Assembly: GCA_051748565.1 (NCBI GenBank)
Contig: JBNJHN010000001.1
Span: 8,593 to 72,592 of the forward strand
DNA length: 64,000 bases
From: Bacillota bacterium
Lineage (GTDB): Bacteria > Bacillota > Dethiobacteria > DTU022
Reading direction: 5' to 3'
Shown: piece by piece, positions 3,099 to 17,176 of the stretch
How the letters are laid out: each line of letters starts with the position of its first letter
How positions within the stretch are numbered: the first letter of the stretch is position 1
Made by a program: the position numbers and the translations under genes
Notes under the pieces: generated by a model
The model's input: only the letters and a program-made list of their open reading frames with translations
What the model was told of the DNA's origin: nothing
Databases searched by the model: none

Positions 3099-4169
3099 AT
3101 GGGAAGGTGGATAGCTTTGCTGCTTGCGATTTTCTTGTTTTTTTCATTAGCGGGTTGTGGTACCGATGATACTGCATCTGCGGACTTGAAAGTTGGTATG
3201 GTTACCGATGCCGGAACTATTGATGACAAATCTTTTAACCAGGGCACCTGGGAAGGGATCCAACTGGCGGCGAAGGATTTTGGACTGGAGACCAGGTATT
3301 TACAACCTGGCGGGACTACGGAAGCAGATTATATTACCGAGATCGGCAACCTTGTTGATGCCGATTTTACTTTTGTTGTCTGCCCCGGATTCAAATTTGA
3401 GACTGCCATATATGATGTGCAGGACAGGTATCCCGGGGCCAAATTTGTTTTAATTGACGGCTATCCTCATGCCGGAGATTGGGTGCCGGTTGTCAATGAG
3501 AATGTAGTTTCCATCTTCTTTACCGAGCATGAATCCGGCTTTCTGGCTGGTCTTGCTACCGCTCTGCAGCTTGGTGAAGGGGAAGTCGGATTTATCGGCG
3601 GTATGGAGATACCCCCGGTTCAGCTCTTTAACTGGGGTTTCCAGCAGGGCATACAGTATGCCAATGAAAATCATGGCACTTCTATCGTAATGAATGCAGA
3701 AAACTTCATTTATGAAGGTACTTTTGAGAACGTAGCAGCAGGCCAGGCCCTGGCTGCCGCAATGTTTGATAAAGGTGTTGATGCGATCTTTGCTGCGGCC
3801 GGCGGTGTCGGCGTCGGAGCAATCAATGAAGCCAAAAGGCGGGCTGATGAAGGTGACACAGTATGGATCATCGGTGTCGACGTCGATCAGTATAATGAAG
3901 GCATCTACGATGGCGAAAACTCGATTATTCTTACCTCCGCAATGAAATATATAGATGTTGCCGCTTATGACATGATTGAAGCCGAGCTAAACGGTGTATT
4001 CCCTGGCGGAGAAATACTGACCTTTAGTGCAGAAAATTACGGTGTGGGTATTCCTCCTGAAAATCCAAATCTTGATGCCGAAGTTGAGGCGATTGTAGCT
4101 GAAGCTTTTGATGCAATGCAGGATGGCACTTTAGTTGTTGCTGATGAACAGGGTAACCTTTTCCAGTAA
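3099..4169 (+). CDS. BMP-family (PnrA/Med-like) ABC transporter substrate-binding lipoprotein, likely nucleoside-binding
   Basis: Signal peptide with lipobox LAGC. BMP-family motifs (KVGMVTDAGTIDDKSFNQ). RBS GAGGAGG. Confidence 0.85.
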   Translation: MGRWIALLLAIFLFFSLAGCGTDDTASADLKVGMVTDAGTIDDKSFNQGTWEGIQLAAKDFGLETRYLQPGGTTEADYITEIGNLVDADFTFVVCPGFKFETAIYDVQDRYPGAKFVLIDGYPHAGDWVPVVNENVVSIFFTEHESGFLAGLATALQLGEGEVGFIGGMEIPPVQLFNWGFQQGIQYANENHGTSIVMNAENFIYEGTFENVAAGQALAAAMFDKGVDAIFAAAGGVGVGAINEAKRRADEGDTVWIIGVDVDQYNEGIYDGENSIILTSAMKYIDVAAYDMIEAELNGVFPGGEILTFSAENYGVGIPPENPNLDAEVEAIVAEAFDAMQDGTLVVADEQGNLFQ

Positions 4170-4218: not shown

Positions 4219-4356
4219 CTAAGTTTAGAATTCAATCTCATTGCAGGGCATCATAAATTTTTGCTGAGATGCACCTGTTAAGCCTTAGATTAACTTACCA
4301 TTGCCTTTCCGGTTTTGGTACTCTGGCGCCTGATCTCTAATGCAGCAGGGGAGTTG

Positions 4357-5886
4357 ATGCTTTTGGACTATGTGGTTGAAATGCGCGAGATCCGAAAAGA
4401 ATTTCCCGGTGTAGTAGCTTGTGACGATATTAATTTCCAGGTCAAAAAAGGTGAAATCCATGCCCTATTGGGTGAAAATGGAGCCGGAAAATCAACTCTG
4501 ATGAATATTCTTTTCGGTCTTTACCAACCCGATAATGGGGAAATTTACCTGCATGGCAAAAAAGTCAACATTGCCAATCCCAATGTTGCTAATGATCTCG
4601 GTATCGGTATGGTTCACCAGCATTTTAAGTTAGTCCACAATTTTACGGTAACGGAAAATATTATTCTAGGTTTGGAACCAACGAGGGCAATGATGATTGA
4701 TATTCGTACCGCTTCAGCCCGGATCAGGAATCTGTCAAAGCAGTATGGCCTGAATGTAGATCCGGATGCAAAAATATCTGATGTATCAGTGGGTATGCAG
4801 CAGAGAGTGGAAATCTTAAAAATGCTCTACCGAAATGCTGAAATCCTTATTTTCGACGAACCAACCGCAGTTTTAACCCCCCAGGAAGTACGCGAACTGA
4901 TGAAAATTATGCGCAGTTTGATTGACGAAGGAAAGACGATTATTTTGATTACACATAAACTGCGCGAAATTATGGCCATTGCCGATCGCTGTACGGTCAT
5001 CCGCTGGGGTAAATTTGTGGGTACGGTCAAAGTCTCAGAAGTCACGGAAGAGAAACTTGCTGAAATGATGGTCGGCCGGAAAATTTTATTCGAAATTAAG
5101 AAAAACGAAGCCCAAATAGGAGATGAAATTTTAAGTATCGAAAACCTTTCTGTCCTATCCGGCAGTGGGGCACTCGGCCTGAAAAATTTCTCTCTCGGGG
5201 TTAAATGCGGTGAAATTGTTGGCCTTGCCGGTGTTGACGGTAATGGGCAGGCCGAGCTGGTGGAGGCAATAATCGGTTTACGCAGCATTGAATCGGGCAA
5301 AATAATCATTCACGGTACTGATGTAAGTTCTTTTCCGGTTCGTAAACGGATCAGCAAAGGTATGGCCCATATCCCCGATGATCGCCACAAGCACGGTCTG
5401 ATCCTCGACTACACTGTCCAGGAAAACCTGGTCCTGAAAAACTACTACCTCGAGCCTTTTTCCCGCAGGGGGTTTTTAAACTGGGACCTGATCCGAGAAC
5501 ATGCCAGCCGGGTTATAAAGGATTTTGATGTCCGCGCCGGGGAAGGGCCGGATTCTTCAGCCCGGTCGCTTTCCGGCGGCAACCAGCAGAAAGCGATTGT
5601 CGGGCGGGAAATTGACGGCAATCCCGAGATACTTATAGCCGTCCAGCCGACCCGTGGCCTTGATGTGGGTGCAATTGAGTATATCCACAGACGCCTGATT
5701 GAACAGCGCGATCAGGGCAAAGCAGTCCTGCTCATATCCCTGGAGCTTGATGAAATTCTCGATTTGTCCGATCGTATTGCGGTAATTAACAGCGGTGAAC
5801 TGGTTGGCCTCGTCAATGCAGCTGAGACAAACGAAAACGAAATTGGTTTAATGATGGCCGGGGTGAAAAGAGGTGCTACAGCTTGA
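4357..5886 (+). CDS. ABC transporter ATP-binding protein with two fused ATPase domains (nucleoside/sugar type)
   Basis: Two Walker A/ABC-signature sets: GENGAGKST..LSGGNQQ-like in the N-terminal half and GVDGNGQ..LSGGNQQK in the C-terminal half. The start is ambiguous. I placed it at the ATG after GGGGAG (4357), but it could be the ORF start at 4315 or the ATG at 4381. Confidence 0.8.
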   Translation: MLLDYVVEMREIRKEFPGVVACDDINFQVKKGEIHALLGENGAGKSTLMNILFGLYQPDNGEIYLHGKKVNIANPNVANDLGIGMVHQHFKLVHNFTVTENIILGLEPTRAMMIDIRTASARIRNLSKQYGLNVDPDAKISDVSVGMQQRVEILKMLYRNAEILIFDEPTAVLTPQEVRELMKIMRSLIDEGKTIILITHKLREIMAIADRCTVIRWGKFVGTVKVSEVTEEKLAEMMVGRKILFEIKKNEAQIGDEILSIENLSVLSGSGALGLKNFSLGVKCGEIVGLAGVDGNGQAELVEAIIGLRSIESGKIIIHGTDVSSFPVRKRISKGMAHIPDDRHKHGLILDYTVQENLVLKNYYLEPFSRRGFLNWDLIREHASRVIKDFDVRAGEGPDSSARSLSGGNQQKAIVGREIDGNPEILIAVQPTRGLDVGAIEYIHRRLIEQRDQGKAVLLISLELDEILDLSDRIAVINSGELVGLVNAAETNENEIGLMMAGVKRGATA

Positions 5887-6998
5887 AAACAAAAGTCAGG
5901 GTCAAAAAAGATTTTCTTATGTCTCTTTTTGCCATATTTCTGGGCTTATTAGCCGGTGCTGTGTTGATGGTGGTTACCGGAAACAACCCCTTTGATGGAT
6001 TTTATTTTCTTTTCCGGGGTGGACTGATGAATATAGAGCGTATAGGTAACACCCTCGGTATGGCTACACCGCTTATATTTTCCGGTTTATCGGTAGCTTT
6101 TGCTTTTAAAACCGGCCTTTTTAATATTGGTGGTGCCGGGCAGATGCTGATTGGCGGTCTTTGTGCCACAGCCATTGGCCTCACTTTCGATTGGCCAAGG
6201 CCGGCTTTGCTTTTGGTTATAGTGTTTGGCTCCCTGATTGGCGGTGCACTCTGGGCAGCCCTGCCCGGTTACCTCAAAGCAAGGTTTAACGTTCATGAAG
6301 TAGTTTCCACGATTATGATGAACTGGATTGCTTACTGGTCCATTTTTTATATTGTGCCTGCATATTTTAAAGGACCCTTTTTGGAAACGGAGTCACAACG
6401 TATACCCGAAGCTGCATCGATGAAGGCATCCTGGCTGACATCACTTTTCAGTGGATCTTATATAAATCTAGGCATATTTCTTGCTGTTATATTTGTTGTT
6501 ATCAGTGCCCTGATCCTGGAGAGAACAACCCTGGGTTACGAGTTGAAAGCAGTCGGTTATAACCGTGATGCGGCCGAGGCTGCCGGGATCAGTGTTAATC
6601 GCAATATTATCCTTTCCATGTCTATTGCCGGTGCCCTGGCAGGTTTGGGCGGAGCTACTTTTTATGTCGGTTATGCTTCTAATATGCAGATTGGAGTTTT
6701 GCCTGCCCAGGGTTTTGACGGGATTGCTGTTGCCCTTTTAGGGGCTAATTCACCCTGGGGGGTGCTTGCAGCAGCAATTTTTTTCGGCCTGCTGCATACT
6801 GGAAAAGGATTTATGAATGCTATGACAGCTATTCCTCCTGAAATAGCCGATACTATTATAGCTACTATTATTTATTTTGCCGCTACATCAGTATTAATTG
6901 AACGGAATTGGGATCGGATCAAGAAGTTCAGGGCAGGCGCTCTACTTCGTAAAGTCAAAGAGAGAACCCTTGAAGCAGGCAATGGAGGTGGGCAATAA
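5883..6998 (+). CDS. ABC transporter permease (BMP-family nucleoside system, NupP-like)
   Basis: 371 aa, multiple TM helices. The start overlaps the upstream ATPase stop (translational coupling). Confidence 0.8.
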   Translation: MKTKVRVKKDFLMSLFAIFLGLLAGAVLMVVTGNNPFDGFYFLFRGGLMNIERIGNTLGMATPLIFSGLSVAFAFKTGLFNIGGAGQMLIGGLCATAIGLTFDWPRPALLLVIVFGSLIGGALWAALPGYLKARFNVHEVVSTIMMNWIAYWSIFYIVPAYFKGPFLETESQRIPEAASMKASWLTSLFSGSYINLGIFLAVIFVVISALILERTTLGYELKAVGYNRDAAEAAGISVNRNIILSMSIAGALAGLGGATFYVGYASNMQIGVLPAQGFDGIAVALLGANSPWGVLAAAIFFGLLHTGKGFMNAMTAIPPEIADTIIATIIYFAATSVLIERNWDRIKKFRAGALLRKVKERTLEAGNGGGQ

Positions 6999-7945
6999 TG
7001 GTAGACTTGATTTACCAGCTATTTCCCTATGCTATTGCTTTTACCATACCTCTGCTGATAACCTCACTGGGAGGCCTCTTTAGTGAACGAAGCGGTGTGA
7101 TCAATATCGGTCTCGAAGGACTTATGCTGATGGGCATGTTTGTCGGTGCCCTGGTTATATCAAGTACTGAAGTGATCTATCCCGGCACAGCTGTATGGAT
7201 TGGCCTTTTTACGGCAATGTTCTTTGGGGCTTTATTTGCCACTCTGCATGCTTTTGCCTGTGTTACATTAAATGCAAACCAGGTTATCAGTGGTATCGCA
7301 ATTAACATGATTGCCTCAGCAGTTACTGTATACTTGGCCCGTTTAATAACTGGCAGTGGTAATGTTCAGATTATCCGTGGTTTAAGCCGGGTGACCATTC
7401 CTGTTTTGTCCGAGATACCCATTCTTGGCAGGCTATTATTCACCCAGACATACGCTACAACCTGGTTTATACTTTTTATTTTAGCAGCGGCGACATTTTT
7501 ACTTTATAAAACTCGTTTCGGTTTACGTTTGCGAGCCTGTGGAGAGCATCCCCATGCAGCTGATGCAGCAGGTGTTAATGTCTACCTTATGCGCTATTTT
7601 GCTGTTCTTATCTCAGGAGCTTGCGCTGGGCTTGGTGGTGCAACATTTATTGTCACTCTCTCTGGTGAGTTTAACGGAACTGCTGCCGGGCTTGGTTTCC
7701 TGGCTCTGGCTGCCTTGATTTTCGGGCAATGGAAACCTTGGGGCATCCTCGGGGCGACATTCTTTTTTGGTTTTGCCAGTACTATTGCCAATGTATCTCA
7801 GGCTGTTCCGATCCTGGCCCAGATACCCGGTATTTATCTGAAAACGTTTCCGTATGTTGTTACATTGATTGCCCTGGTCCTTTCTTCTAAATCATCTCAA
7901 GCCCCGAAAGCGATTGGGGAGCCATATGATAAAGGGAAACGATAG
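6998..7945 (+). CDS. ABC transporter permease (BMP-family nucleoside system, NupQ-like)
   Basis: 315 aa polytopic membrane protein. RBS GGAGGTGGG. The start overlaps the upstream stop. Confidence 0.8.
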   Translation: MVDLIYQLFPYAIAFTIPLLITSLGGLFSERSGVINIGLEGLMLMGMFVGALVISSTEVIYPGTAVWIGLFTAMFFGALFATLHAFACVTLNANQVISGIAINMIASAVTVYLARLITGSGNVQIIRGLSRVTIPVLSEIPILGRLLFTQTYATTWFILFILAAATFLLYKTRFGLRLRACGEHPHAADAAGVNVYLMRYFAVLISGACAGLGGATFIVTLSGEFNGTAAGLGFLALAALIFGQWKPWGILGATFFFGFASTIANVSQAVPILAQIPGIYLKTFPYVVTLIALVLSSKSSQAPKAIGEPYDKGKR

Positions 7946-9314
7946 TAAATCTTTATGGCAGCGTGGTGATCTTTTGCGGGTTTATGATTTGATTTTAAAA
8001 AAACGCAATGGTTTTGCTCTGAGTGGAGCTGAAATTGATTTTATCATTAAAGGTTATGTTGATGGTGGTATACCTGACTATCAGATAGCGGCTCTGGTTA
8101 TGGCTGTTTTTTTTCAGGGCATGACTGAAGATGAAGCTCTATCCCTGACCATGGCCATGGTTGATTCCGGCGATACAATTTCTTTAAAAGAAATCCCGGG
8201 GATTAAAGTAGATAAACACAGCACCGGTGGAGTCGGTGATACAACTACCCTGGTTCTAGCTCCGCTGGTGGCAGCATCAGGAGCTCCTGTCGCCAAGTTA
8301 TCAGGTCGTGGACTCGGACACACCGGTGGCACCCTGGATAAACTGGAGTCTATTCCCGGCCTGAGGACGGAGATGTCTATAGAAGATTTTATTGCCGCCG
8401 TTAAAGATATCGGTTTGGCGGTGGCCGCTCAAACCGGTAACCTGGTCCCCGCTGATAAAAAACTTTATGCCCTTCGAGATGTTACGGCGACGGTCGACAG
8501 TATGGCCCTGATTGCTGCCAGTATCATGAGTAAAAAGCTGGCAGCAGGAGCCGATGCACTTGTCCTTGATGTTAAGTTCGGTGACGGTGCGTTCCTGAAG
8601 GATCAGGTTCAAGCATTGGAACTGGCAAGAATAATGGTAGATATTGGTTCTAAAGCCGGTCGTAAAACTGTGGCCCTGGTGACTGATATGAACCAACCCC
8701 TGGGCAGGGCAGTCGGTAATGCCCTGGAGGTTAAAGAAGCGATTAAGACTCTGCGCGGTGAGGGTCCTCCCGATTTAGAAGAATTATGCCTGGTTTTAGG
8801 CGGTTGGATGCTCTACCTTGCCGAAAAAGCTACCAGTCCTGAAAAGGGGAAAAATATCCTTAAGAAAGTGATTGAAAATGGTGCCGCCCTGAATAAATTC
8901 AGAGAAATGATAAAAAGACAGCACGGTGATATTATGGTAACCGAGGATCTCTCCCTGCTGCCGGAAACGGAAAGGCAATTTGAAGTCAAAGCGGCAATAG
9001 AAGGGTATGTAAGCCTTCTTAAAGCTGAAAGAATCGGAATGGCGGCAATGACTCTGGGCGCAGGCCGGGAAAAAAAGGATTCAACAATTGACCCTGCAGT
9101 TGGTATTATGATTGAGAAAAAAATGGGTGACATGGTCAAAAAGGGAGACACACTGGCTGTATTACACGCTCGTGCAGATTTATTACCGGATCAGATTGAA
9201 TCAATCAAGCAAATGGTTATATCCGCCTATGAGTTTGTTAACGAACCGGTAAATCTGCAACCGCTTGTATTAGGCGTTGTCAGGCAGAACGGAGGTAAAA
9301 CAGATGTCTTTTAA
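7926..9314 (+). CDS. pdp: Pyrimidine-nucleoside (thymidine) phosphorylase
   Basis: Pdp/DeoA architecture and motifs (GIPDYQIAALVMAV, KHSTGGVGDTTTL, ACT-like C-terminus). The start could be the ATG at 7926 (overlapping the permease end) or the in-frame TTG at 7974 preceded by GGTGA. Confidence 0.85.
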   Translation: MIKGNDSKSLWQRGDLLRVYDLILKKRNGFALSGAEIDFIIKGYVDGGIPDYQIAALVMAVFFQGMTEDEALSLTMAMVDSGDTISLKEIPGIKVDKHSTGGVGDTTTLVLAPLVAASGAPVAKLSGRGLGHTGGTLDKLESIPGLRTEMSIEDFIAAVKDIGLAVAAQTGNLVPADKKLYALRDVTATVDSMALIAASIMSKKLAAGADALVLDVKFGDGAFLKDQVQALELARIMVDIGSKAGRKTVALVTDMNQPLGRAVGNALEVKEAIKTLRGEGPPDLEELCLVLGGWMLYLAEKATSPEKGKNILKKVIENGAALNKFREMIKRQHGDIMVTEDLSLLPETERQFEVKAAIEGYVSLLKAERIGMAAMTLGAGREKKDSTIDPAVGIMIEKKMGDMVKKGDTLAVLHARADLLPDQIESIKQMVISAYEFVNEPVNLQPLVLGVVRQNGGKTDVF

Positions 9315-9951
9315 ACTGGCCGGTTATATCGACCATACCTTGCTTAAACCGGAAGCAACCGGGCGGGATATTGTTAAACTTTGCAAAGAAGCGGTTGAAT
9401 ACAGTTTTTATGCTGTCTGCATCAATCCCTCTTATGTCAATACTGCAGTCAAAGAGCTGCAGGGCAGCCCGGTAAAAGTTTGTGCCGTGGTCGGTTTTCC
9501 GTTGGGAGTAACGTCGACTACGGTTAAAGCTTTCGAAGCGGTTGAGGCTGTGGACGGTGGGGCCGAAGAAATTGATATGGTAATTCATGTCGGAGCCCTC
9601 AAGGAAGGCAGTACACGATATGTAATCGATGATCTGTCCGCTGTTGTTAAAGCGGTGAAGGGTAAAACCGTCAAGGTGATTATCGAGACCGGTTTGCTTG
9701 ATAAGGAAGAAAAAATTACTGCCTGCCGTTTGGTTAAAGAATCGGGGGCAGGCTTTGTAAAAACCTCAACCGGTTTTGGACCGGGCGGGGCTACGATTGC
9801 CGATATACAGCTGATGCGCGAAACGGTTGGCCCGGATTTGGGAGTCAAAGCTTCGGGCGGCATTCGCACTGCGAAGGCAGCCCGAGAGATGATTGAAGCC
9901 GGGGCTGACAGGATCGGCACCAGTTCAGGAATAGCAATAATCCAGGGATAA
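9304..9951 (+). CDS. deoC: Deoxyribose-phosphate aldolase
   Basis: GGAGG plus ATG at 9304. DeoC motifs (AVCINPSYV, catalytic Lys region GFVKTSTGF). Overlaps the end of pdp. Confidence 0.9.
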   Translation: MSFKLAGYIDHTLLKPEATGRDIVKLCKEAVEYSFYAVCINPSYVNTAVKELQGSPVKVCAVVGFPLGVTSTTVKAFEAVEAVDGGAEEIDMVIHVGALKEGSTRYVIDDLSAVVKAVKGKTVKVIIETGLLDKEEKITACRLVKESGAGFVKTSTGFGPGGATIADIQLMRETVGPDLGVKASGGIRTAKAAREMIEAGADRIGTSSGIAIIQG

Positions 9952-10114: not shown

Positions 10115-10144
10115 TTGACAAAGCGGACTGGAGTAGGCTAAAAT
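10115..10144 (+). promoter_or_regulatory. Candidate promoter (TTGACA 10115-10120, TAAAAT 10139-10144, 18-nt spacer) upstream of the UPF0182 gene
   Basis: Hexamer match only. A small hairpin plus T-rich tract (10167-10195) lies between it and the start codon. Confidence 0.35.
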
Positions 10145-10208: not shown

Positions 10209-12956
10209 TTGCGCAGCCGTTTTATGATCATCATCTTTGCAGTTGTCATCTTTGGGTCACTCCTGCTGGCTGGGACAAATTTTTATTTGGATTTGCTTTG
10301 GTTTACAGAATTGGATGTGGAGCAGGTATTTTGGACCCAAAATCTTATGCGCTGGGGTTTGCGTATTGGCGCATTTATTTTCATGTTCGCTTTTCTTTTT
10401 ATTAACCTTATGGTGACCAGGCCTTATGTAATGAGTTTTCCCAACCTGGCTCTTCGGGAAAGATTAATGGCAACCGGATTTATGCGCTACCTGACCCCGC
10501 GACGCCTGGCAATTTATTTTCTTATTGCAGCGGCTGTATTGTCTTATCTGTTTTCAGGTTATACAGGAAGCTTTTGGATGGAAGTATTGAAATATTTTAA
10601 CCAGGTTTCTTTTGGAATCAATGATCCAATTTTTGGGGCTGATGTTGCTTTTTATGTTTTCGGTCTTCCGTTCTACCGCTTAATTTATGGTTTTTTGATG
10701 ATGACCGTGGTGATCACCTTAATCTTAGTAGGAGCTATCTATCTGCTGCTGAACCCTCCATCACAGGGTAAACAGGGTTGGACACTCCCTCCGGTCAAGG
10801 GAATCAGCCACCTGGGAGTCTTGCTATCTCTTATATTCGGTTTGAAAGTTTGGGATTACCGGCTCAAGCAGTTGGAACTGCTTTTATCCGAACGGGGAGT
10901 GGTCTACGGGGCCGGCTATACTGATATAAATGCCAATTATACGGTTCTAACGATTTTAATGATCCTGGCTGGGCTGATAACCCTTGTTTTCCTGGCTAAC
11001 ATTTTTTTACGCCGTTACCGTATATTCGTATATGGAATTTTGGCTCTGACAGGAGTTTCGCTCCTGGGAGGATGGGCCTACCCGGCCGCTATTCAGGGTT
11101 TTGTGGTCGAACCAAGTGAATTTACCTATGAAAGGGAATATCTGGCCCATAATATAGAATTTACTCGTCAGGCTTACGGTATAGAGCAGTTTGGAACGCG
11201 CCCTTATGATCCGGGCGAACCGCTCACCTGGGATGATCTGCGCGATAACCCGGGGACAATAAACAACGTGCGCCTCTGGGATCATCGGCCCCTTTTAACT
11301 ACTTTTAACGAGCTGCAGGCGATCCGTCTTTACTATCGTTTTACCGATGTCGATATAGATCGTTATGTAATCGATGGTGAATACCGTCAGGTTATGCTGG
11401 CCGCCCGTGAACTGGATAAAAGCCGTCTTGCAGAGCAGGCCCAGACCTGGGTAAACCTGCACCTGCAGTGGACGCATGGATATGGCGTAACGATAAGCCC
11501 GGTCAACGAAGTAACTTCTGAAGGCTTGCCGCGTTATTTCCTGGGCGACATTCCTCCTGCCGGAGCCCTGGAGTTAGATAACCCAGCCATCTATTTCGGT
11601 GAACTGACCGATGATTATGTGATAATCAATACAGCGACACCGGAATTTCATTATGCCACAGCCGGTGACGAAAATGAATTTATTTTTTATGATGGCGATG
11701 CCGGGATACCACTGCAGAATATATTACGCAGAACCCTTTTTGCCCTTAAATTCGGGGAATACAGGATTCTAATATCAAATGAACTGAACAATGATAGCCG
11801 TATCCTTTTTGATCGCAATATCCATGAACGGGTGCGTAAGATTGCACCGTTTTTGCGCTACGACGGGGACCCATATATTGTGGTTAACGACGGACGATTA
11901 TTTTGGATTCAGGATGCTTATACCGTTACCGGAAATTACCCTTATTCAGCTCCTTATGGCAATATTAATTATATCCGCAACTCTGTGAAGATCGTAATTG
12001 ATGCTTATAACGGAAATGTTAATTATTACATTATCGATCCTGATGACCCCATGGTTCAAACCTATGCTGATATATTCCCGCAGTTGTTCTTGCCTTTTGA
12101 GGAACTCCCTGAGGGTTTAATTGAACATCTGCGTTATCCCGAGGATCTCTTTAACCTGCAGGCCCAGATTTACAAGCTCTACCATATTACCGATCCCAAT
12201 ATTTTCTATACCAGAGAAGATCTCTGGGATGTACCTATGGAGCAGTCTTTCGGGCAGGAACAGTTGATGGAGTCCTATTACACAATTTTAGAACTGCCCG
12301 GTTATGATGAGCCAGAATATGTTCAGATCTTGCCTTTTACGCCTGATAAGCGAAATAATATGATTGCCTGGATGGTTGCTCGCTGCGATCAACCCAATTA
12401 CGGAAATGTCGAGGTCTTCGAATTTCCCACGGAAAGGGTTATACTCGGCCCGAAACAGGTTGAAAACAGGATTGATCAGAGCACTGAAATATCGGAACAG
12501 TTCACACTTTGGGGACAGGTTGGTTCCAGTGTAATCCGCGGTAACCTTTTAGTTCTGCCGATCAACAATGCCCTGCTATATGTCGAACCGATCTTCCTGG
12601 AAGCCGATCGGGGTGGTTTGCCTGAACTGGCCCGGGTCATTGTGGTTTACGATGAAACAGTTGTCATGGAAAATACTCTGGAAATGGCCTTAATCCGTAT
12701 CTTCGGTGAAATAGGAGTCTTGCCGCCGGATCTCGATCCGGACGAACTGCCTGATGATATGCCGGAAGATGATCTTGTCCCTCCCGATGACTCTCCAATT
12801 ATTGACGACGCTGTGTTGGCTGAGTTAATCAGATCGGCGCAGGAAGCATATACCGAGGCTATAGAGTTCCAGCAGGCCGGTGACTGGGCCGGTTACGGTG
12901 AAAAAATCCGGGAACTGGAGCAAATTCTTGACGATCTTGCCCGCCTTGCACCCTGA
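10209..12956 (+). CDS. UPF0182 family large membrane protein (function unknown)
   Basis: 915 aa. About 7 N-terminal TM helices, then a large extracytoplasmic domain and a strongly acidic C-terminal tail (DLDPDELPDDMPEDDLVPPDD). TTG start after GGGGGAA. Confidence 0.7.
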   Translation: MRSRFMIIIFAVVIFGSLLLAGTNFYLDLLWFTELDVEQVFWTQNLMRWGLRIGAFIFMFAFLFINLMVTRPYVMSFPNLALRERLMATGFMRYLTPRRLAIYFLIAAAVLSYLFSGYTGSFWMEVLKYFNQVSFGINDPIFGADVAFYVFGLPFYRLIYGFLMMTVVITLILVGAIYLLLNPPSQGKQGWTLPPVKGISHLGVLLSLIFGLKVWDYRLKQLELLLSERGVVYGAGYTDINANYTVLTILMILAGLITLVFLANIFLRRYRIFVYGILALTGVSLLGGWAYPAAIQGFVVEPSEFTYEREYLAHNIEFTRQAYGIEQFGTRPYDPGEPLTWDDLRDNPGTINNVRLWDHRPLLTTFNELQAIRLYYRFTDVDIDRYVIDGEYRQVMLAARELDKSRLAEQAQTWVNLHLQWTHGYGVTISPVNEVTSEGLPRYFLGDIPPAGALELDNPAIYFGELTDDYVIINTATPEFHYATAGDENEFIFYDGDAGIPLQNILRRTLFALKFGEYRILISNELNNDSRILFDRNIHERVRKIAPFLRYDGDPYIVVNDGRLFWIQDAYTVTGNYPYSAPYGNINYIRNSVKIVIDAYNGNVNYYIIDPDDPMVQTYADIFPQLFLPFEELPEGLIEHLRYPEDLFNLQAQIYKLYHITDPNIFYTREDLWDVPMEQSFGQEQLMESYYTILELPGYDEPEYVQILPFTPDKRNNMIAWMVARCDQPNYGNVEVFEFPTERVILGPKQVENRIDQSTEISEQFTLWGQVGSSVIRGNLLVLPINNALLYVEPIFLEADRGGLPELARVIVVYDETVVMENTLEMALIRIFGEIGVLPPDLDPDELPDDMPEDDLVPPDDSPIIDDAVLAELIRSAQEAYTEAIEFQQAGDWAGYGEKIRELEQILDDLARLAP

Positions 12957-12977
12957 TCATAGATGGGAGGGTGACCA

Positions 12978-14570
12978 TTGCCGTCTGATGAATATGTTAT
13001 CTATACCGATGGTGCCTGTTCAGGAAACCCAGGTCCTGGAGGCTGGGGCGTAGTGATCAGACGCGGAGATTCTGAGAAAGAGATTTCCGGAAGAGAAGCT
13101 ATGACTACCAACCAGCGCATGGAGTTAAAAGCTGCCGTGGAAGCGCTGCGCTCGGTTCCAACCGGTTGTAAAGTTAGGCTGCACAGTGACAGCGCCTACC
13201 TGATCAATAGCTTTCGACAGGGATGGATGAAACGCTGGGTGAGGAATGGTTGGTTGACCAGCAAAGGCAATCCGGTCGAAAACCAGGATCTCTGGAAAGA
13301 ACTCCTGGAACTTTCAAAACTGAATACTGTTGAGTGGATCAAGGTGCAAGGGCACGGGACCGATCAAACCAATCAGCGCTGTGATCTTTTAGCCCGCAGA
13401 GCAATTGAATGTAACGAATCAGATGATGGTGGAAAGGCCCGGGAAAATACCGGCAGCCCAGGCATGCCAGGCAGTAAAGAAGCAGGTAGAATTCGCCGGT
13501 TAGGCCTCCTGACAGGCGGAGGAGATTGCCCGGGCTTGAATGCGGTAATCAGGGCAGTGGTTAAGGGGGCAAGTTATAATTATGATATCGAGGTAGTCGG
13601 TTTTAATAACGGTTTTAAAGGCCTGGTTGAAAACGATGCCTGCCTGATTAGTGATATTGCTGTGTCGGGTATTCTTAACCGCGGAGGCACAATTCTTGGA
13701 ACCTCCAATCGTGATAACCCCTTTGATTATCATCCCGGCGGTTCTGATTACAGTGAAACAGGTGTTGATCGTTCCAAAGATGCCATTGAAAATCTGAAAA
13801 AATGGGATATTGATTGCCTCGTGGTAATTGGTGGCGACGGCAGCCTCTTTTTAGCTCATCGTTTTAGTGAACTGGGTGTTCCTATTATCGGTATTCCCAA
13901 AACAATTGACAATGATCTGCCGGCAACCGACGTTACCTTTGGCTTCGATTCAGCTGTAACCACTGCTACCGAAGCGATTGACAAGATTCATACTACTGCC
14001 GAGTCGCATCACAGGGTTATGGTAGTTGAGGTTATGGGCCGCCATGCGGGTTGGATTGCGCTGCATGCTGGCATGGCCGGTGGAGGTGATATCATATTAA
14101 TTCCTGAACTGCCGTTTGAATATACCTGCATTGCCGAAAAAATTGCAGATCGCCGCCGCAGCGGTAAGAAATTTAGCATTATTGTTGTAGCCGAGGGGGC
14201 TTATGAAGCCGGAAAAGAGCCGGTTTATCAACAAAAAGGAGATGTTAAAAGGCTGGGCGGGATCGGTCCCTTGATTTCGCGTGAAATTGAGAAGCGCACA
14301 GGCATGGAAAGCAGGGCCACCGTTCTGGGTCACCTTCAGCGCGGTGGCAGTCCAACTTCGTATGATCGAATTCTTGCCACTCGTTTTGGCGTTAAAGCGG
14401 TTGAACTTTTTCGGGCCGGACGCTTGAACGAAATGGTCTGCCTGAGAGGAAATCTTATTGATTCTGTTCCACTGGAAGAGGCTGTTTCAGGGATCAAGAT
14501 GGTTGATCCCGCCAGCGAAATTGTGCGAACCGCTATCGCAGTAGGCACTTCGTTCGGCTGTTCTCTTTAA
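12978..14570 (+). CDS. Apparent fusion protein: N-terminal ribonuclease HI domain (about residues 1-147) joined by a Gly/Ser/charged linker to an ATP-dependent 6-phosphofructokinase (about residues 175-530)
   Basis: One uninterrupted 530-codon frame. The RNase H part carries the DEDD catalytic residues (YTDGAC, MELKA, HSDSAY, CDLLARRA). The PFK part has GGDCPGLNAVIRAVV, GGDGS, TIDNDL and MGRHAGW. TTG start 5 nt after GGGAGGG. No stop codon or credible internal RBS/start lies between the two domains. Confidence 0.8.
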   Translation: MPSDEYVIYTDGACSGNPGPGGWGVVIRRGDSEKEISGREAMTTNQRMELKAAVEALRSVPTGCKVRLHSDSAYLINSFRQGWMKRWVRNGWLTSKGNPVENQDLWKELLELSKLNTVEWIKVQGHGTDQTNQRCDLLARRAIECNESDDGGKARENTGSPGMPGSKEAGRIRRLGLLTGGGDCPGLNAVIRAVVKGASYNYDIEVVGFNNGFKGLVENDACLISDIAVSGILNRGGTILGTSNRDNPFDYHPGGSDYSETGVDRSKDAIENLKKWDIDCLVVIGGDGSLFLAHRFSELGVPIIGIPKTIDNDLPATDVTFGFDSAVTTATEAIDKIHTTAESHHRVMVVEVMGRHAGWIALHAGMAGGGDIILIPELPFEYTCIAEKIADRRRSGKKFSIIVVAEGAYEAGKEPVYQQKGDVKRLGGIGPLISREIEKRTGMESRATVLGHLQRGGSPTSYDRILATRFGVKAVELFRAGRLNEMVCLRGNLIDSVPLEEAVSGIKMVDPASEIVRTAIAVGTSFGCSL

Positions 14571-14652: not shown

Positions 14653-15480
14653 TTAAATTTGTGGCTTAATTGAAATGATAATATAGATTACCAGTATGGT
14701 GAAAAGCAGCATTATAAATCCTGCTGCCAGATCGATTCTTCCCAGGTGCAGGGTTTTCATTTTTGTCCTACCTTTACCTCCGGTATAACTCCTTGCCTCC
14801 ATGGCTACAATTAATTCTTCAGCTCTCTTGAAGGCATTAATAAACAAGGGAAGGAAAACGGGAAATAGTTTTCTCGTTTTTTGTAGGAAGTTACCACGAT
14901 CGAAGGCAACTCCACGTGCCATTTGTGCTTTAACGATTTTATCCAGCTCTTCGGCCAGAATCAAGACGAAACGCAGGGCAATTACCATGGTCATTACCAG
15001 TTCCTGGGAGGGAACGCCAATTGTGCGTAGTGGTTTCAGCAGGCTTTCCAATCCGTCTGTGAGGCTGACTATTGAAGTAGTCAGGGTTAAAATAGTAGTA
15101 ACTATAAACAGAAAAAGAACCCGCAAAGTTATCAGGTTGCCCATATGTAACCCCGCATCGGTGGCGGTAAAGATCCACCACGAAAATAAAACTTCGGCCC
15201 CGGGGGTTGAGTATAAAAACAGTTGGAAAACCCACATTAAAACAAGGACAGGAAGCATTGGTTTAAGGCCGCAGATAGCAAAGTTCATGGGGATACCGGC
15301 GGTTATGATCACCGCTGCGGTGAAGATTACAAAGACACCATACGCTTCATAAGATCGAATGAAGAGAAGAAGGGTAATCAAAAAAGCGGCAGCAATAATT
15401 TTTGTTCTTGGATCAAGACGGTGAATTGAGGTCGTTCCGGGCAGATAAACCCCTAAAGTAATATTTTTTGTCAGCTCCAT
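14653..15480 (-). CDS. ecfT: Energy-coupling factor transporter transmembrane component EcfT
   Basis: 275 aa polytopic membrane protein, last gene of the ecfA1-ecfA2-ecfT arrangement, with the conserved Arg-containing coupling region (ARGVAFDRG). Confidence 0.85.
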   Translation of the reverse strand: MELTKNITLGVYLPGTTSIHRLDPRTKIIAAAFLITLLLFIRSYEAYGVFVIFTAAVIITAGIPMNFAICGLKPMLPVLVLMWVFQLFLYSTPGAEVLFSWWIFTATDAGLHMGNLITLRVLFLFIVTTILTLTTSIVSLTDGLESLLKPLRTIGVPSQELVMTMVIALRFVLILAEELDKIVKAQMARGVAFDRGNFLQKTRKLFPVFLPLFINAFKRAEELIVAMEARSYTGGKGRTKMKTLHLGRIDLAAGFIMLLFTILVIYIIISIKPQI

Positions 15481-16346
15481 TAATCAGCCACCCTCCCTTC
15501 CTGCAGTGAAGCGGCAATTGATTCGAGAGCTTCTTCGAGATTAAGGATAGCGGGAGGCAGGCGATAACCAGCAGAGCGAAGTTTATCGGCAATAACCATC
15601 ACTTCAGGAAGCTCCAAACCAATTGAATATAGTTCTGCTGATTGTGAAAAGACATCCCTTGTCTTTCCGTCGAAGGCAATCCGGCCCCGGTCAATTACAA
15701 CTATTCTTTCAGCCAGTTCGGCAACTTCATCCATGCTGTTTGATATATATATTATAGTAATATTTTTTTCACGGTGCAGTTTCCTGATTACACTGATAAT
15801 TTCTTCCCTGCCCCGTGGATCAAGGCCGGCAGTTACATCATCAAGAATTAATATTTGTGGTCGGCAGGCTAAAACTCCTGCTATGGCTGCCCGCCTTTTT
15901 TGCCCTCCGCTTAAGGTAAAAATATCCCGTCCTAAAAAAGCAGAAGAATCGAGCCCGACTTGTTCCATGACTTCAAGGACCCTGCATTCTATCTCTTTAA
16001 CCGTCAGCTTCTGGTTTTTAGGGCCAAATGCAATATCTTCGCCTACAGTAGGTGCGAAAAGCTGGTAGTCAGGGTTTTGAAATACATAACCGACTTCATG
16101 TCTTAGTTTAACCAGGGCAGCTTTTTTATCGGAAGTATCGCAGTTGTTTATGATTACTTTACCCTGCTGGGGAATAAAAAGGGCATTGAAATGCTGGGCC
16201 AGCGTAGTTTTTCCGGACTGAGTGGGTCCGATAATGCCGACAAATTCACCGTCTTTTATACTGAGATTAATATGATGGAGCACTTTTTTTTCAAATGGGG
16301 TTCCTTTTTTATAACTGTGGCAGAGATTGCTTACTTCAATCGGCAT
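15480..16346 (-). CDS. ecfA2: Energy-coupling factor transporter ATPase EcfA2
   Basis: ABC ATPase (GPTQSGKTT, LSGGQKRRAAIAGVLA, ILILDD). The start overlaps the ecfA1 end. Confidence 0.85.
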   Translation of the reverse strand: MPIEVSNLCHSYKKGTPFEKKVLHHINLSIKDGEFVGIIGPTQSGKTTLAQHFNALFIPQQGKVIINNCDTSDKKAALVKLRHEVGYVFQNPDYQLFAPTVGEDIAFGPKNQKLTVKEIECRVLEVMEQVGLDSSAFLGRDIFTLSGGQKRRAAIAGVLACRPQILILDDVTAGLDPRGREEIISVIRKLHREKNITIIYISNSMDEVAELAERIVVIDRGRIAFDGKTRDVFSQSAELYSIGLELPEVMVIADKLRSAGYRLPPAILNLEEALESIAASLQEGRVAD

Positions 16347-17176
16347 ATGCTGTCAATAAGCTCCTCGGAATGGATAATATCATCAGGCAACAGGAATCCT
16401 TTATTACGGAGGCCTGTTGCGAGTTGTGCGGCAACCGGAAAATCAAGACCAAGATTTATTATTTCATCTCTCCGGCGGAAAATTTCAAAAGGAGCACCTT
16501 CCAACTTAATTTCGCCCCTGTCCAGAACAATCATCCGATCGCAGTGTACAACTTCGCTCATATAATGAGTCAAAAGTACAATAGTAATTCCTTCCGCACG
16601 GTTAAGTTGCAGCACATTTTCGATTACCTCCCGCCTGCTGCGCGGGTCAAGGTGGGCTGTTGGCTCATCAAGGACAATACAGCTTGGTTTCATGGCCAAA
16701 ACACCGGCAATGGCTACCCGCTGTTTTTGACCTTCCGAAAGGGAACTCGGTGATTCAAGGCGGAGATCTTCAAGATTTAAGGTGTCGAGAGCCCAATCGA
16801 CTCTTTCTCTTATCTCATTAGGGGGAAGACCCAGGTTTTCAGGCCCGAAGGCTATATCTTCTTCTACAATACTGCTGACCAACTGGTTATCAGGATTCTG
16901 AAAGACCATGCCTACCAATTTGCGGATAGCGGCGGTATTAACTTTATCGGAGGCAGAAAGGCCTTCCACAAACACTTTGCCTTTCGTTGCAGTCAGTAAA
17001 CCGTTGAAATGACGGGCCAGGGTAGACTTTCCTGAACCATTCTGACCGGTGACGGCCAGCATTTCACCTTGATGAACCTGCATGTTGACACTGCTTAATG
17101 CTTTAATTGCTTTGCCGCTGCCGGCCCTGTAAGTATATGAGAGGTCAATTGCCTCGATTAACGGATTCAAATCCAA
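16331..17176 (-). CDS. ecfA1: Energy-coupling factor transporter ATPase EcfA1
   Basis: ABC ATPase (GQNGSGKST, LSEGQKQRVAIAGVLA, IVLDEPT). Confidence 0.85.
   Translation of the reverse strand: MDLNPLIEAIDLSYTYRAGSGKAIKALSSVNMQVHQGEMLAVTGQNGSGKSTLARHFNGLLTATKGKVFVEGLSASDKVNTAAIRKLVGMVFQNPDNQLVSSIVEEDIAFGPENLGLPPNEIRERVDWALDTLNLEDLRLESPSSLSEGQKQRVAIAGVLAMKPSCIVLDEPTAHLDPRSRREVIENVLQLNRAEGITIVLLTHYMSEVVHCDRMIVLDRGEIKLEGAPFEIFRRRDEIINLGLDFPVAAQLATGLRNKGFLLPDDIIHSEELIDSICRLK

Follow-up and report, generated by a model that had tools for sequence, protein, structure and literature searches.

We report that ribonuclease HI (RNase HI) and 6-phosphofructokinase (PFK) are encoded by one uninterrupted gene in a 64,000-nucleotide stretch of DNA from a Bacillota bacterium (contig JBNJHN010000001.1; the window, below, is this whole stretch), and that the product is, with high probability, a genuine and evolutionarily stable bifunctional polypeptide of a Dethiobacteria-type Bacillota clade, built from autonomous domains and fixed by operon adjacency. 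The rnhA::pfk open reading frame (ORF) occupies positions 12978..14570 of the forward strand and is complete, with a TTG start, 530 codons and a TAA stop. A first reading of the letters (the original prediction) had proposed a single 530-codon ORF encoding both enzymes in full, of a fusion type that it did not recognize, and had left it as either a genuine, perhaps moonlighting, fusion protein or an artefact. The architecture is real, conserved and apparently undescribed before, and it is made of two well-known enzymes.

Profile and structure comparisons bear out the completeness of both halves. The RNase HI domain (amino acids 5–143; 12990..13406, forward strand) matches Pfam PF00075 over profile positions 3–140 of 141 (E = 1.6e-40, 139 bits against a cut-off of 25.8), and the N-terminal part of the protein exceeds the cut-off of the NCBIfam RNase HI model PRK00203/NF001236 (182 bits, cut-off 160). 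The phosphofructokinase domain (amino acids 174–527; 13497..14558, forward strand) is of the PFK_mixed type, matching PF00365 over amino acids 174–477 (E = 6.4e-110, 367 bits against 30.9), TIGR02483 PFK_mixed over amino acids 174–503 (442.2 bits against 430.55) and NF002872 (403.5 bits against 253). Matches in the Protein Data Bank (PDB) are separate for the two halves and cover each at full length, with RNase H 3h08 (3e-47) for the first and the bacterial PFKs 3pfk and 1pfk (~1e-70) for the second. The motifs quoted in the original prediction, GGDG, TIDND and MGRHAGW of the kinase and the DEDD residues of the nuclease, were all located in the fusion protein. Its RNase HI residues are D11, E49, D71, H126 and D136, together with the basic-protrusion tryptophans. 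Among the full-length fused members described below, the equivalent D10, E48, D70, H124 and D134 are invariant in 68/68, where the numbering follows E. coli RNase HI; W85, W90 and W104 of the basic protrusion or handle, which binds the hybrid, are also invariant across the fused family, and K87 is mostly K or R. On the kinase side, D103, G104, T125, D127, D129, R162, R171, E222, R243, H249 and R252 are invariant in 68/68, and the R72 equivalent is displaced by one position, inside an invariant SNR motif.

The two domains are joined by a linker of ~27 amino acids, close to the flexible linker of about 30 residues proposed earlier. Amino acids 146–169 (13413..13484, forward strand), which correspond to the former rnhA tail and intergenic spacer, are predicted to be disordered. 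In an AlphaFold2 prediction made with the family alignment, both domains fold, the predicted local distance difference test (pLDDT) values being mostly 80–95 in RNase HI and 25–33 across the linker. The prediction has no inter-domain interface, and its predicted template modelling (pTM) score for the whole fusion is 0.52, as expected of two modules that lack a fixed mutual orientation. The guanine-plus-cytosine (GC) content is continuous across the RNase H/PFK junction, at 0.49–0.53. A second rnhA or pfk does not occur within the window.

The same architecture recurs widely. A word-indexed search of 5.8 billion proteins returned ~70 clusters (at 90% identity) in which the RNase H and PFK domains of Pfam are both present in full; they stem from NCBI, JGI, ENA and Logan assemblies, are 67–93% identical to the window protein and measure 518–565 amino acids, so that the search for orthologous fusions suggested at the outset was answered in the affirmative. 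The window protein itself is NCBI MGM0687966.1, 'MAG: ribonuclease HI [Bacillota bacterium]' (MAG, metagenome-assembled genome), on an 82.5-kb contig. Where members have names, these are Dethiobacteria, Bacillota or, for sediment of serpentinising springs, 'Syntrophomonadaceae'; the host group consists of uncultured, alkaliphilic Firmicutes. The neighbourhood of the window is kept in fused loci with as little as 67% identity, in which a gene for a UPF0182 family membrane protein is followed by the fusion and then by energy-coupling factor (ECF) transporter genes; the order upstream is (pyrimidine-nucleoside phosphorylase)-DeoC-UPF0182, and the transporter genes lie downstream on the opposite strand. 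At the DNA level, continuity of the junction was read in six fused loci only; each has one uninterrupted frame, including two that are annotated as PFK only.

Annotation pipelines see one half of this protein at a time. The NCBI Prokaryotic Genome Annotation Pipeline (PGAP) names the full proteins, of 520–565 amino acids, 'ribonuclease HI' only, and JGI names them '6-phosphofructokinase' only. Two NCBI MAGs (L093, 2485-4089; L094, 2569-4179) call a 362- or 392-amino acid '6-phosphofructokinase' where the DNA is an uninterrupted full fusion. The short proteins P0304 and P0289, which fall into fused clusters, are annotation artefacts, their DNA being uninterrupted fusions. Because of the one-half naming and the truncation to PFK, metabolic reconstructions may mis-score these genomes: reconstructions of Dethiobacteria from soda lakes and serpentinising sites can wrongly miss PFK, and with it glycolysis, or RNase HI.

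We quantified selection on each part of the gene by aligning 72 fused proteins and by comparing coding sequences. Two blocks are highly conserved, RNase H at a mean pairwise identity of 68% and PFK at 82%. The linker is 14–59 amino acids long (median 28.5), has a mean identity of 9.8%, consists to 84% of Gly, Ser, Pro, charged and polar residues, and is always in frame; no stop was found within it in the six fused DNA loci or the 72 proteins. Between the window and locus L001 (86% amino acid identity), the ratio of nonsynonymous to synonymous substitution rates (dN/dS, Nei-Gojobori) is 0.069 for RNase H, 0.742 for the linker and 0.033 for PFK, at a dS of ~1.6–1.9 that is near saturation. RNase H and PFK are thus both under strong purifying selection, and the low ratios indicate that selection maintains both enzymes. 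Drift in the linker is close to neutral, but no stop or frameshift ever interrupts it.

These data bear directly on the possibility that separate rnhA and pfk genes were merged by a local error in assembly, sequencing or gene calling that lost a stop. Such an error is easy to imagine, as sister lineages carry the two genes in the same frame with a single stop between them and one wrong base would mimic the fusion. However, the ~70 clusters come from independent assemblies and pipelines, their linkers vary in length and sequence and are always open, the fused proteins group in a single clade, and GC content is continuous over the junction; the internal Shine-Dalgarno (SD) sequence and start codon have also decayed, which an error would not cause. 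We regard an artefact as extremely unlikely. Of the two options in the original prediction, the genuine fusion is the one that stands, upheld by the ~70 clusters, synteny, active sites and selection, and the artefact is refuted.

We now consider how the fusion is translated. The SD sequence GGGAGGG (12965..12971, forward strand) lies 6 nt 5′ of the TTG start, and an equivalent TTG and SD are found in L001 (TGGAGGG) and L085 (GGGGGAGG); the fusion ORF of L093 also starts with a TTG codon. The sole in-frame ATG of the window's linker (M163; 13464..13466, forward strand) has no SD-like sequence 5′ of it and is not a credible start, as had been claimed, and a Met at this position is found only in the window protein and P0001. 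Alignment with unfused relatives places the ancestral pfk start at what is now an ATT codon (Ile172; 13491..13493, forward strand). All of these relatives begin their PFK there or no more than 4 codons away, using Met or GTG, with the N-terminal pattern M-x-[RK]-[IL]-G-[IL]-L-T-G-G-G-D. Among the 72 fused proteins, the ancestral start position holds Met in 13, Val or Leu in 18, and in 41 a residue that ATG, GTG or TTG cannot encode (Ile, Ala, Thr, Glu, Lys, Ser, Phe, Gly or Asn). The strong pfk SD of split relatives (GGGGGAGGTGA, GGGGGATTAAG, AAAGGAG) is gone in the fused genes, and the linker of L001 lacks in-frame start codons altogether. With the pfk start and SD decayed, PFK would normally be produced solely within the fusion protein.

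The origin of the fusion can be read from its closest unfused relatives. In a neighbor-joining (NJ) tree of PFK domains, the fused proteins form one clade that is sister to the closest unfused PFKs, and in four unfused lineages rnhA lies directly 5′ of pfk in the same neighbourhood. L082/L083 have the order UPF0182-rnhA-pfk with a spacer of 186 nt (L082, 5815-6000) and three in-frame stops; L175 has DeoC-UPF0182-rnhA-pfk with a spacer of 15 nt (3986-4000); L086 and L176 both have deoC-rnhA-pfk, with spacers of 48 nt (4953-5000) and 96 nt (3905-4000). The last three lineages have one in-frame stop each (TGA in two of them, TAA in the other). The spacer of L176 resembles a typical linker. L086 reads ...LARLAVPGAGG*GRRRDKEIYPFGGGEAVRRLGILTGGGD..., and with this lone stop one substitution would recreate the fused architecture. 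The split pairs are thus like the fusion in synteny, gene order and reading frame, with 60–63% RNase H and 67–71% PFK identity to it, and differ in the one to three in-frame stops between the genes and in a pfk with its own strong SD and start codon.

Split same-frame sister genes imply either that the fusion arose by stop loss or that the two states interconvert. The simplest history is that a conserved rnhA-pfk pair fused once by stop loss, that the spacer became the linker, and that the internal initiation signals then eroded. Under this history, co-oriented, same-frame neighbours in a pdp-deoC-UPF0182-rnhA-pfk cluster would have fused in situ; loss of the rnhA stop would have turned a short spacer into a disordered tether of 14–59 residues; and translation would now proceed from the rnhA TTG behind its strong SD, with the old pfk start and SD decayed. 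The original prediction had named separate, adjacent, same-frame genes in all relatives as one finding that would speak against a fusion. Such genes are present in the sister lineages only and not in the fused clade, and as split same-frame sisters they account for the origin of the fusion and do not refute it.

The rnhA-pfk pairing is specific to this lineage. We found no rnhA beside pfk in two other sister groups or at one more distant PFK, and none of the 79 loci with the closest stand-alone RNase HI genes has a pfk within 6 kb. These 79 loci came from a scan of genome contigs with the window protein, most of them through the motif QGWMKRWV; the scan recovered one fused locus (L001) and serves as a negative control, not as a guide to taxonomy. 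A scan of metagenome contigs with the generic patterns GNPGPGGW and GGDCPGLN yielded at least 80 distant PFK loci (46–59% identity), and among the matches listed none has an RNase H or UPF0182 gene nearby. It is this absence of the pair elsewhere that makes the pairing lineage-specific. One PFK-only gene (P0073; L090, 1486-2568) forms a long branch inside the fused clade and has its own SD, AGGAGAGGAAG. We rejected it as a split of the locus, as it lies in another context, without RNase H or UPF0182, and we take it as a relocated PFK-only copy that probably derives from the PFK half via relocation and domain loss.

We also searched 1.84 billion representatives, clustered at 50% identity, exhaustively with HMMER. 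At this identity the whole fused family collapses to one representative, P0049, and a second RNase H-PFK fusion of independent origin is absent from the best 150 matches; the other long proteins among them are tandem PFKs, tandem RNase H proteins and PFKs with unrelated extensions. We rejected P0158 (563 amino acids) and P0165 (532 amino acids) as independent fusions, their N-terminal extensions of ~180 amino acids having no Pfam match; both are PFKs ~50% identical to the window protein, with other, uncharacterised N-terminal additions to the PFK family. P0247 (509 amino acids) and P0277 (356 amino acids) were rejected likewise, as they consist of RNase HI domains in tandem, three in the former and two in the latter. 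Full-text literature searches found no paper on an RNase H-PFK fusion or on a Dethiobacteria PFK, in keeping with the first impression that the fusion type is unfamiliar.

We next consider which kind of PFK is fused. The sequence scores below the cut-offs of the TIGR02482 PFKA_ATP equivalog (310 bits against 371) and of PRK14071/NF010674 (388 against 544). The effector-site positions R21, R25, R54, R154, E187 and K213 are R, K, D, H, D and K in the window protein, so that the residues of the allosteric effector site of the E. coli and Geobacillus enzymes are mostly replaced (K25, D54, H154 and D187). By the missed equivalog cut-offs and the altered effector site, it is not a classical allosteric PfkA. 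All equivalog models for pyrophosphate (PPi)-dependent PFKs score far below their cut-offs. The residue at position 104 distinguishes phosphoryl donors, Gly being found in ATP enzymes and Asp in PPi enzymes, and the residue at 124 is Gly in classical ATP enzymes and Lys in PPi and mixed-clade enzymes. Gly104 and Lys124 (E. coli numbering) are both invariant in the fused family, a combination that occurs in ATP-dependent PFK_mixed members such as the Streptomyces coelicolor enzyme. The donor is probably ATP, as Gly104 yields the GGDG motif; Lys124 is the PPi or mixed-clade state and would also be compatible with PPi. The earlier assignment to an ATP-type PFK is thus likely by Gly104 but less than certain, given Lys124 and membership of the PFK_mixed family.

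Bacterial PFKs are homotetramers, and a PFK tetramer of ~230 kDa with four flexibly tethered RNase HI modules would consequently be expected. By their residues, the RNase HI modules would cleave the RNA strand of RNA:DNA hybrids, such as R-loops and primers, and the PFK would phosphorylate fructose-6-phosphate (F6P), probably with ATP, each independently of the other. The two activities would be locked at 1:1, and on the scaffold of the tetramer nuclease and glycolytic enzyme would have to be expressed in equal amounts. By analogy with the mycobacterial RNase HI-CobC protein, fixation of the fusion would most likely be a neutral or mildly convenient result of operon adjacency, and mechanistic coupling of the two chemistries probably does not occur.

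Several points weigh against this account, the first of them against a single fusion event. The spacers of all four split lineages (186, 15, 48 and 96 nt) are multiples of three, so that 4/4 are in frame. Their differing lengths imply at least three indel events, and the chance of all remaining in frame, if non-coding, is ~(1/3)^3, or ~0.04. In-frame spacers fit repeated fission or read-through as well as they fit a single fusion, and the NJ tree carries no support values; the numbers suggest repeated fission of the fusion, or read-through, rather than ordinary intergenic drift. Possible explanations are chance; repeated fission by nonsense mutation 5′ of a latent SD and start, which would arise easily in linkers rich in Gly, Glu, Lys and Arg; and selection for frame, where stop read-through gives some fusion protein in 'split' genomes. 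The most far-reaching version of these ideas is a toggle between fusion and fission with leaky stop read-through, in which the PFK tetramer would offer RNase HI a multivalent platform informed by metabolism, and the glycolytic state would be linked with the removal of R-loops or primers or with an assembly of the degradosome type. We judge this to be very improbable; if true, the toggle would serve, in covalent form, as a 'Rosetta stone' for the much-debated tie between PFK and RNA processing in Firmicutes.

The remaining points concern the product. Tetramerisation and the activity of either domain are deduced from homology, and a 1:1 ratio of a usually scarce nuclease to a usually abundant glycolytic enzyme is odd and could point to post-translational cleavage or an unseen function. 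A minority of lineages keep Met at the old pfk start, in L093 behind a weak SD-like sequence (GGGGTGGA-N7-ATG), and internal initiation could occur in Met-keeping lineages such as this one. One ORF might then give two proteins, with a free PFK, and perhaps a free RNase HI, released by internal initiation or by proteolysis of the tether. The long, disordered and protease-accessible linker would permit this, the Met, Val and Leu residues at the ancestral start of some members are compatible with it, and a free PFK would settle the mismatch in stoichiometry. However, the 41 members with a non-start residue cannot initiate there, the window has ATT without an SD at this site, and L001 offers no start codon anywhere in its linker. 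The linker, with its identity of ~10%, has no conserved cleavage motif, and an independently made PFK would tolerate stops in the linker, which neither the DNA loci nor the proteins contain. Production of two proteins from the fused gene is thus unlikely, and a single bifunctional polypeptide is preferred.

A different concern is whether the two halves of this polypeptide work together. The PFK tetramer could be a scaffold that gives RNase HI avidity for R-loops, provides a degradosome-like tie or makes RNase H responsive to metabolites. Adjacency of rnhA and pfk is kept even in the split lineages, where all four examined are in frame, the fusion has persisted while synonymous sites diverged to saturation, and the PFK of Bacillus subtilis is reported to be part of the RNase Y network, in contact with RNase Y and CshA (PMC5289998). 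Against this, the structure prediction offers no interface and a pTM of 0.52, the linker is disordered and variable in length, and the best 150 matches from 1.84 billion representatives hold no independent RNase H-PFK fusion and hence no convergent evidence. In addition, rnhA is not beside pfk in the two sister groups, the 79 RNase HI loci or, among the matches listed, the 80 distant PFK loci, and the best-studied analogue, RNase HI-CobC, has dissociated domains (PMC7466739). We therefore judge functional coupling to be improbable, and moonlighting in that sense, as raised in the original prediction, is so far without support. Autonomous domains, tethered as a result of operon adjacency, are the preferred reading.

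The genes around the fusion are consistent across much of the family. The UPF0182 gene (10209..12956, forward strand; Pfam PF03699, E = 3.8e-285) ends 21 nt 5′ of the fusion start and is also the upstream neighbour in the fused loci L001, L084, L085, L093 and L094 and in the split loci L082, L083 and L175. Upstream of it, a promoter-like site (TTGACA-18-TAAAAT; 10115..10144, forward strand) matches 11/12 consensus positions, the best in the scan; a likely candidate for the operon promoter, it comes from a consensus scan only. Convergent ECF-transporter genes follow the fusion (14653..17176, reverse strand), comprising a CbiQ-type T component and two ATP-binding cassette (ABC) ATPases. CbiQ and the adjacent ABC ATPase have Pfam matches; the third ORF (16331..17176) was read as a putative ABC ATPase from its sequence and from the same-position gene in L085 and L093. 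The ECF arrangement is also found in L085, L086, L093, L094 and L176. On the forward strand 5′ of the UPF0182 gene, positions 4315-9951 hold a nucleoside-catabolism block with an ABC ATPase, two BPD_transp_2 permeases, a pyrimidine-nucleoside phosphorylase (7869-9314, forward strand) and a DeoC aldolase (9277-9951, forward strand). Synteny of pdp-deoC beside rnhA/pfk is kept in fused and split relatives (L085, L086, L091 and L176), and by this conservation the fused PFK may serve pentose or nucleoside carbon catabolism. An Rfam scan of the whole window (1-64000) gave no family at its gathering score and no tRNA, rRNA or riboswitch match.

Some split lineages show further rearrangements at the locus. 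Directly 3′ of pfk, L086 (6334-8431) and L176 (5329-7429) have a second, divergent PFK of 421–422 amino acids, ~32% identical and possibly of the PPi type, and next to it a class II fructose-bisphosphate aldolase gene; neither the window nor the other fused loci have this PFK-aldolase pair at the locus. In L081/L082, a 97-amino acid ORF (7341-7634) lies ~250 nt 3′ of the intact pfk and is 72% identical to the C-terminal 85 PFK residues; it has the look of a partial duplicate or of a fragment of a pseudogene. The UPF0182 gene of L082 (3340-4875), in this split lineage, matches only residues 410–914 of the window's UPF0182 protein, and the gene call in L081 (1999-4875) is a 958-amino acid product with a GmrSD_N (PF03235) N-terminus, located after a HEPN_Swt1/DUF499 gene. 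Here, insertion of defence genes looks to have disrupted or remodelled UPF0182.

The family offers a natural case of gene fusion by loss of a stop codon, in which intermediates one mutation away survive in sister lineages. Its decayed internal start and its spacer-turned-linker are useful for studying how fusions become irreversible. If the two activities were coupled, the fusion would allow a direct approach to the association of glycolytic with RNA-processing enzymes in Gram-positive bacteria and to the reason for it.

Finally, we compare the fusion with known systems. Stand-alone RNase HI (E. coli RnhA; PDB 3h08) shares the full-length match, the DEDD residues with His124 and the protrusion tryptophans; it is a monomer of ~150 amino acids, whereas the C-terminus of the fused domain runs on into the linker and a 357-amino acid kinase. 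The PFK_mixed enzymes (TIGR02483) of Bacillota and Actinomycetota share the catalytic and F6P-binding residues, and the closest unfused relatives are 67–73% identical; the fused PFK differs from them in its N-terminal RNase HI. PFK of B. subtilis has been reported in a degradosome-like network centred on RNase Y, where it interacts with RNase Y and CshA (PMC5289998). That network, which includes PfkA and enolase, likewise links PFK to RNA-cleaving enzymes in Bacillota, but it is non-covalent and debated, and its nucleases are RNase Y, RNase J and PNPase, not RNase HI; nothing in the present sequence data places the fusion in a degradosome-like complex. The nearest parallel is the actinomycete RNase HI-CobC protein (Rv2228c, MSMEG_4305/RnhC; NF005567), which likewise has an N-terminal RNase HI, a hypervariable linker and a C-terminal enzyme of small-molecule phospho-metabolism, is restricted to one clade and has domains that differ in evolutionary rate. 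Its C-terminal partner is a CobC of the histidine-phosphatase fold and not a PFK, and it belongs to Actinomycetota and not Bacillota. Against NF005567 (bifunctional RNase H/acid phosphatase), the window protein scores 15.9 bits, from the RNase H part only, where the cut-off is 326; it is an analogue of the Rv2228c-type proteins and not a member. In MSMEG_4305, the domains are functionally dissociated in vivo, the linker is hypervariable and fixation was put down to drift (PMC7466739). If the RNase HI and PFK domains are similarly uncoupled, their fusion would join RNase HI-CobC as the second independent example of an RNase HI that tolerates an unrelated metabolic partner.

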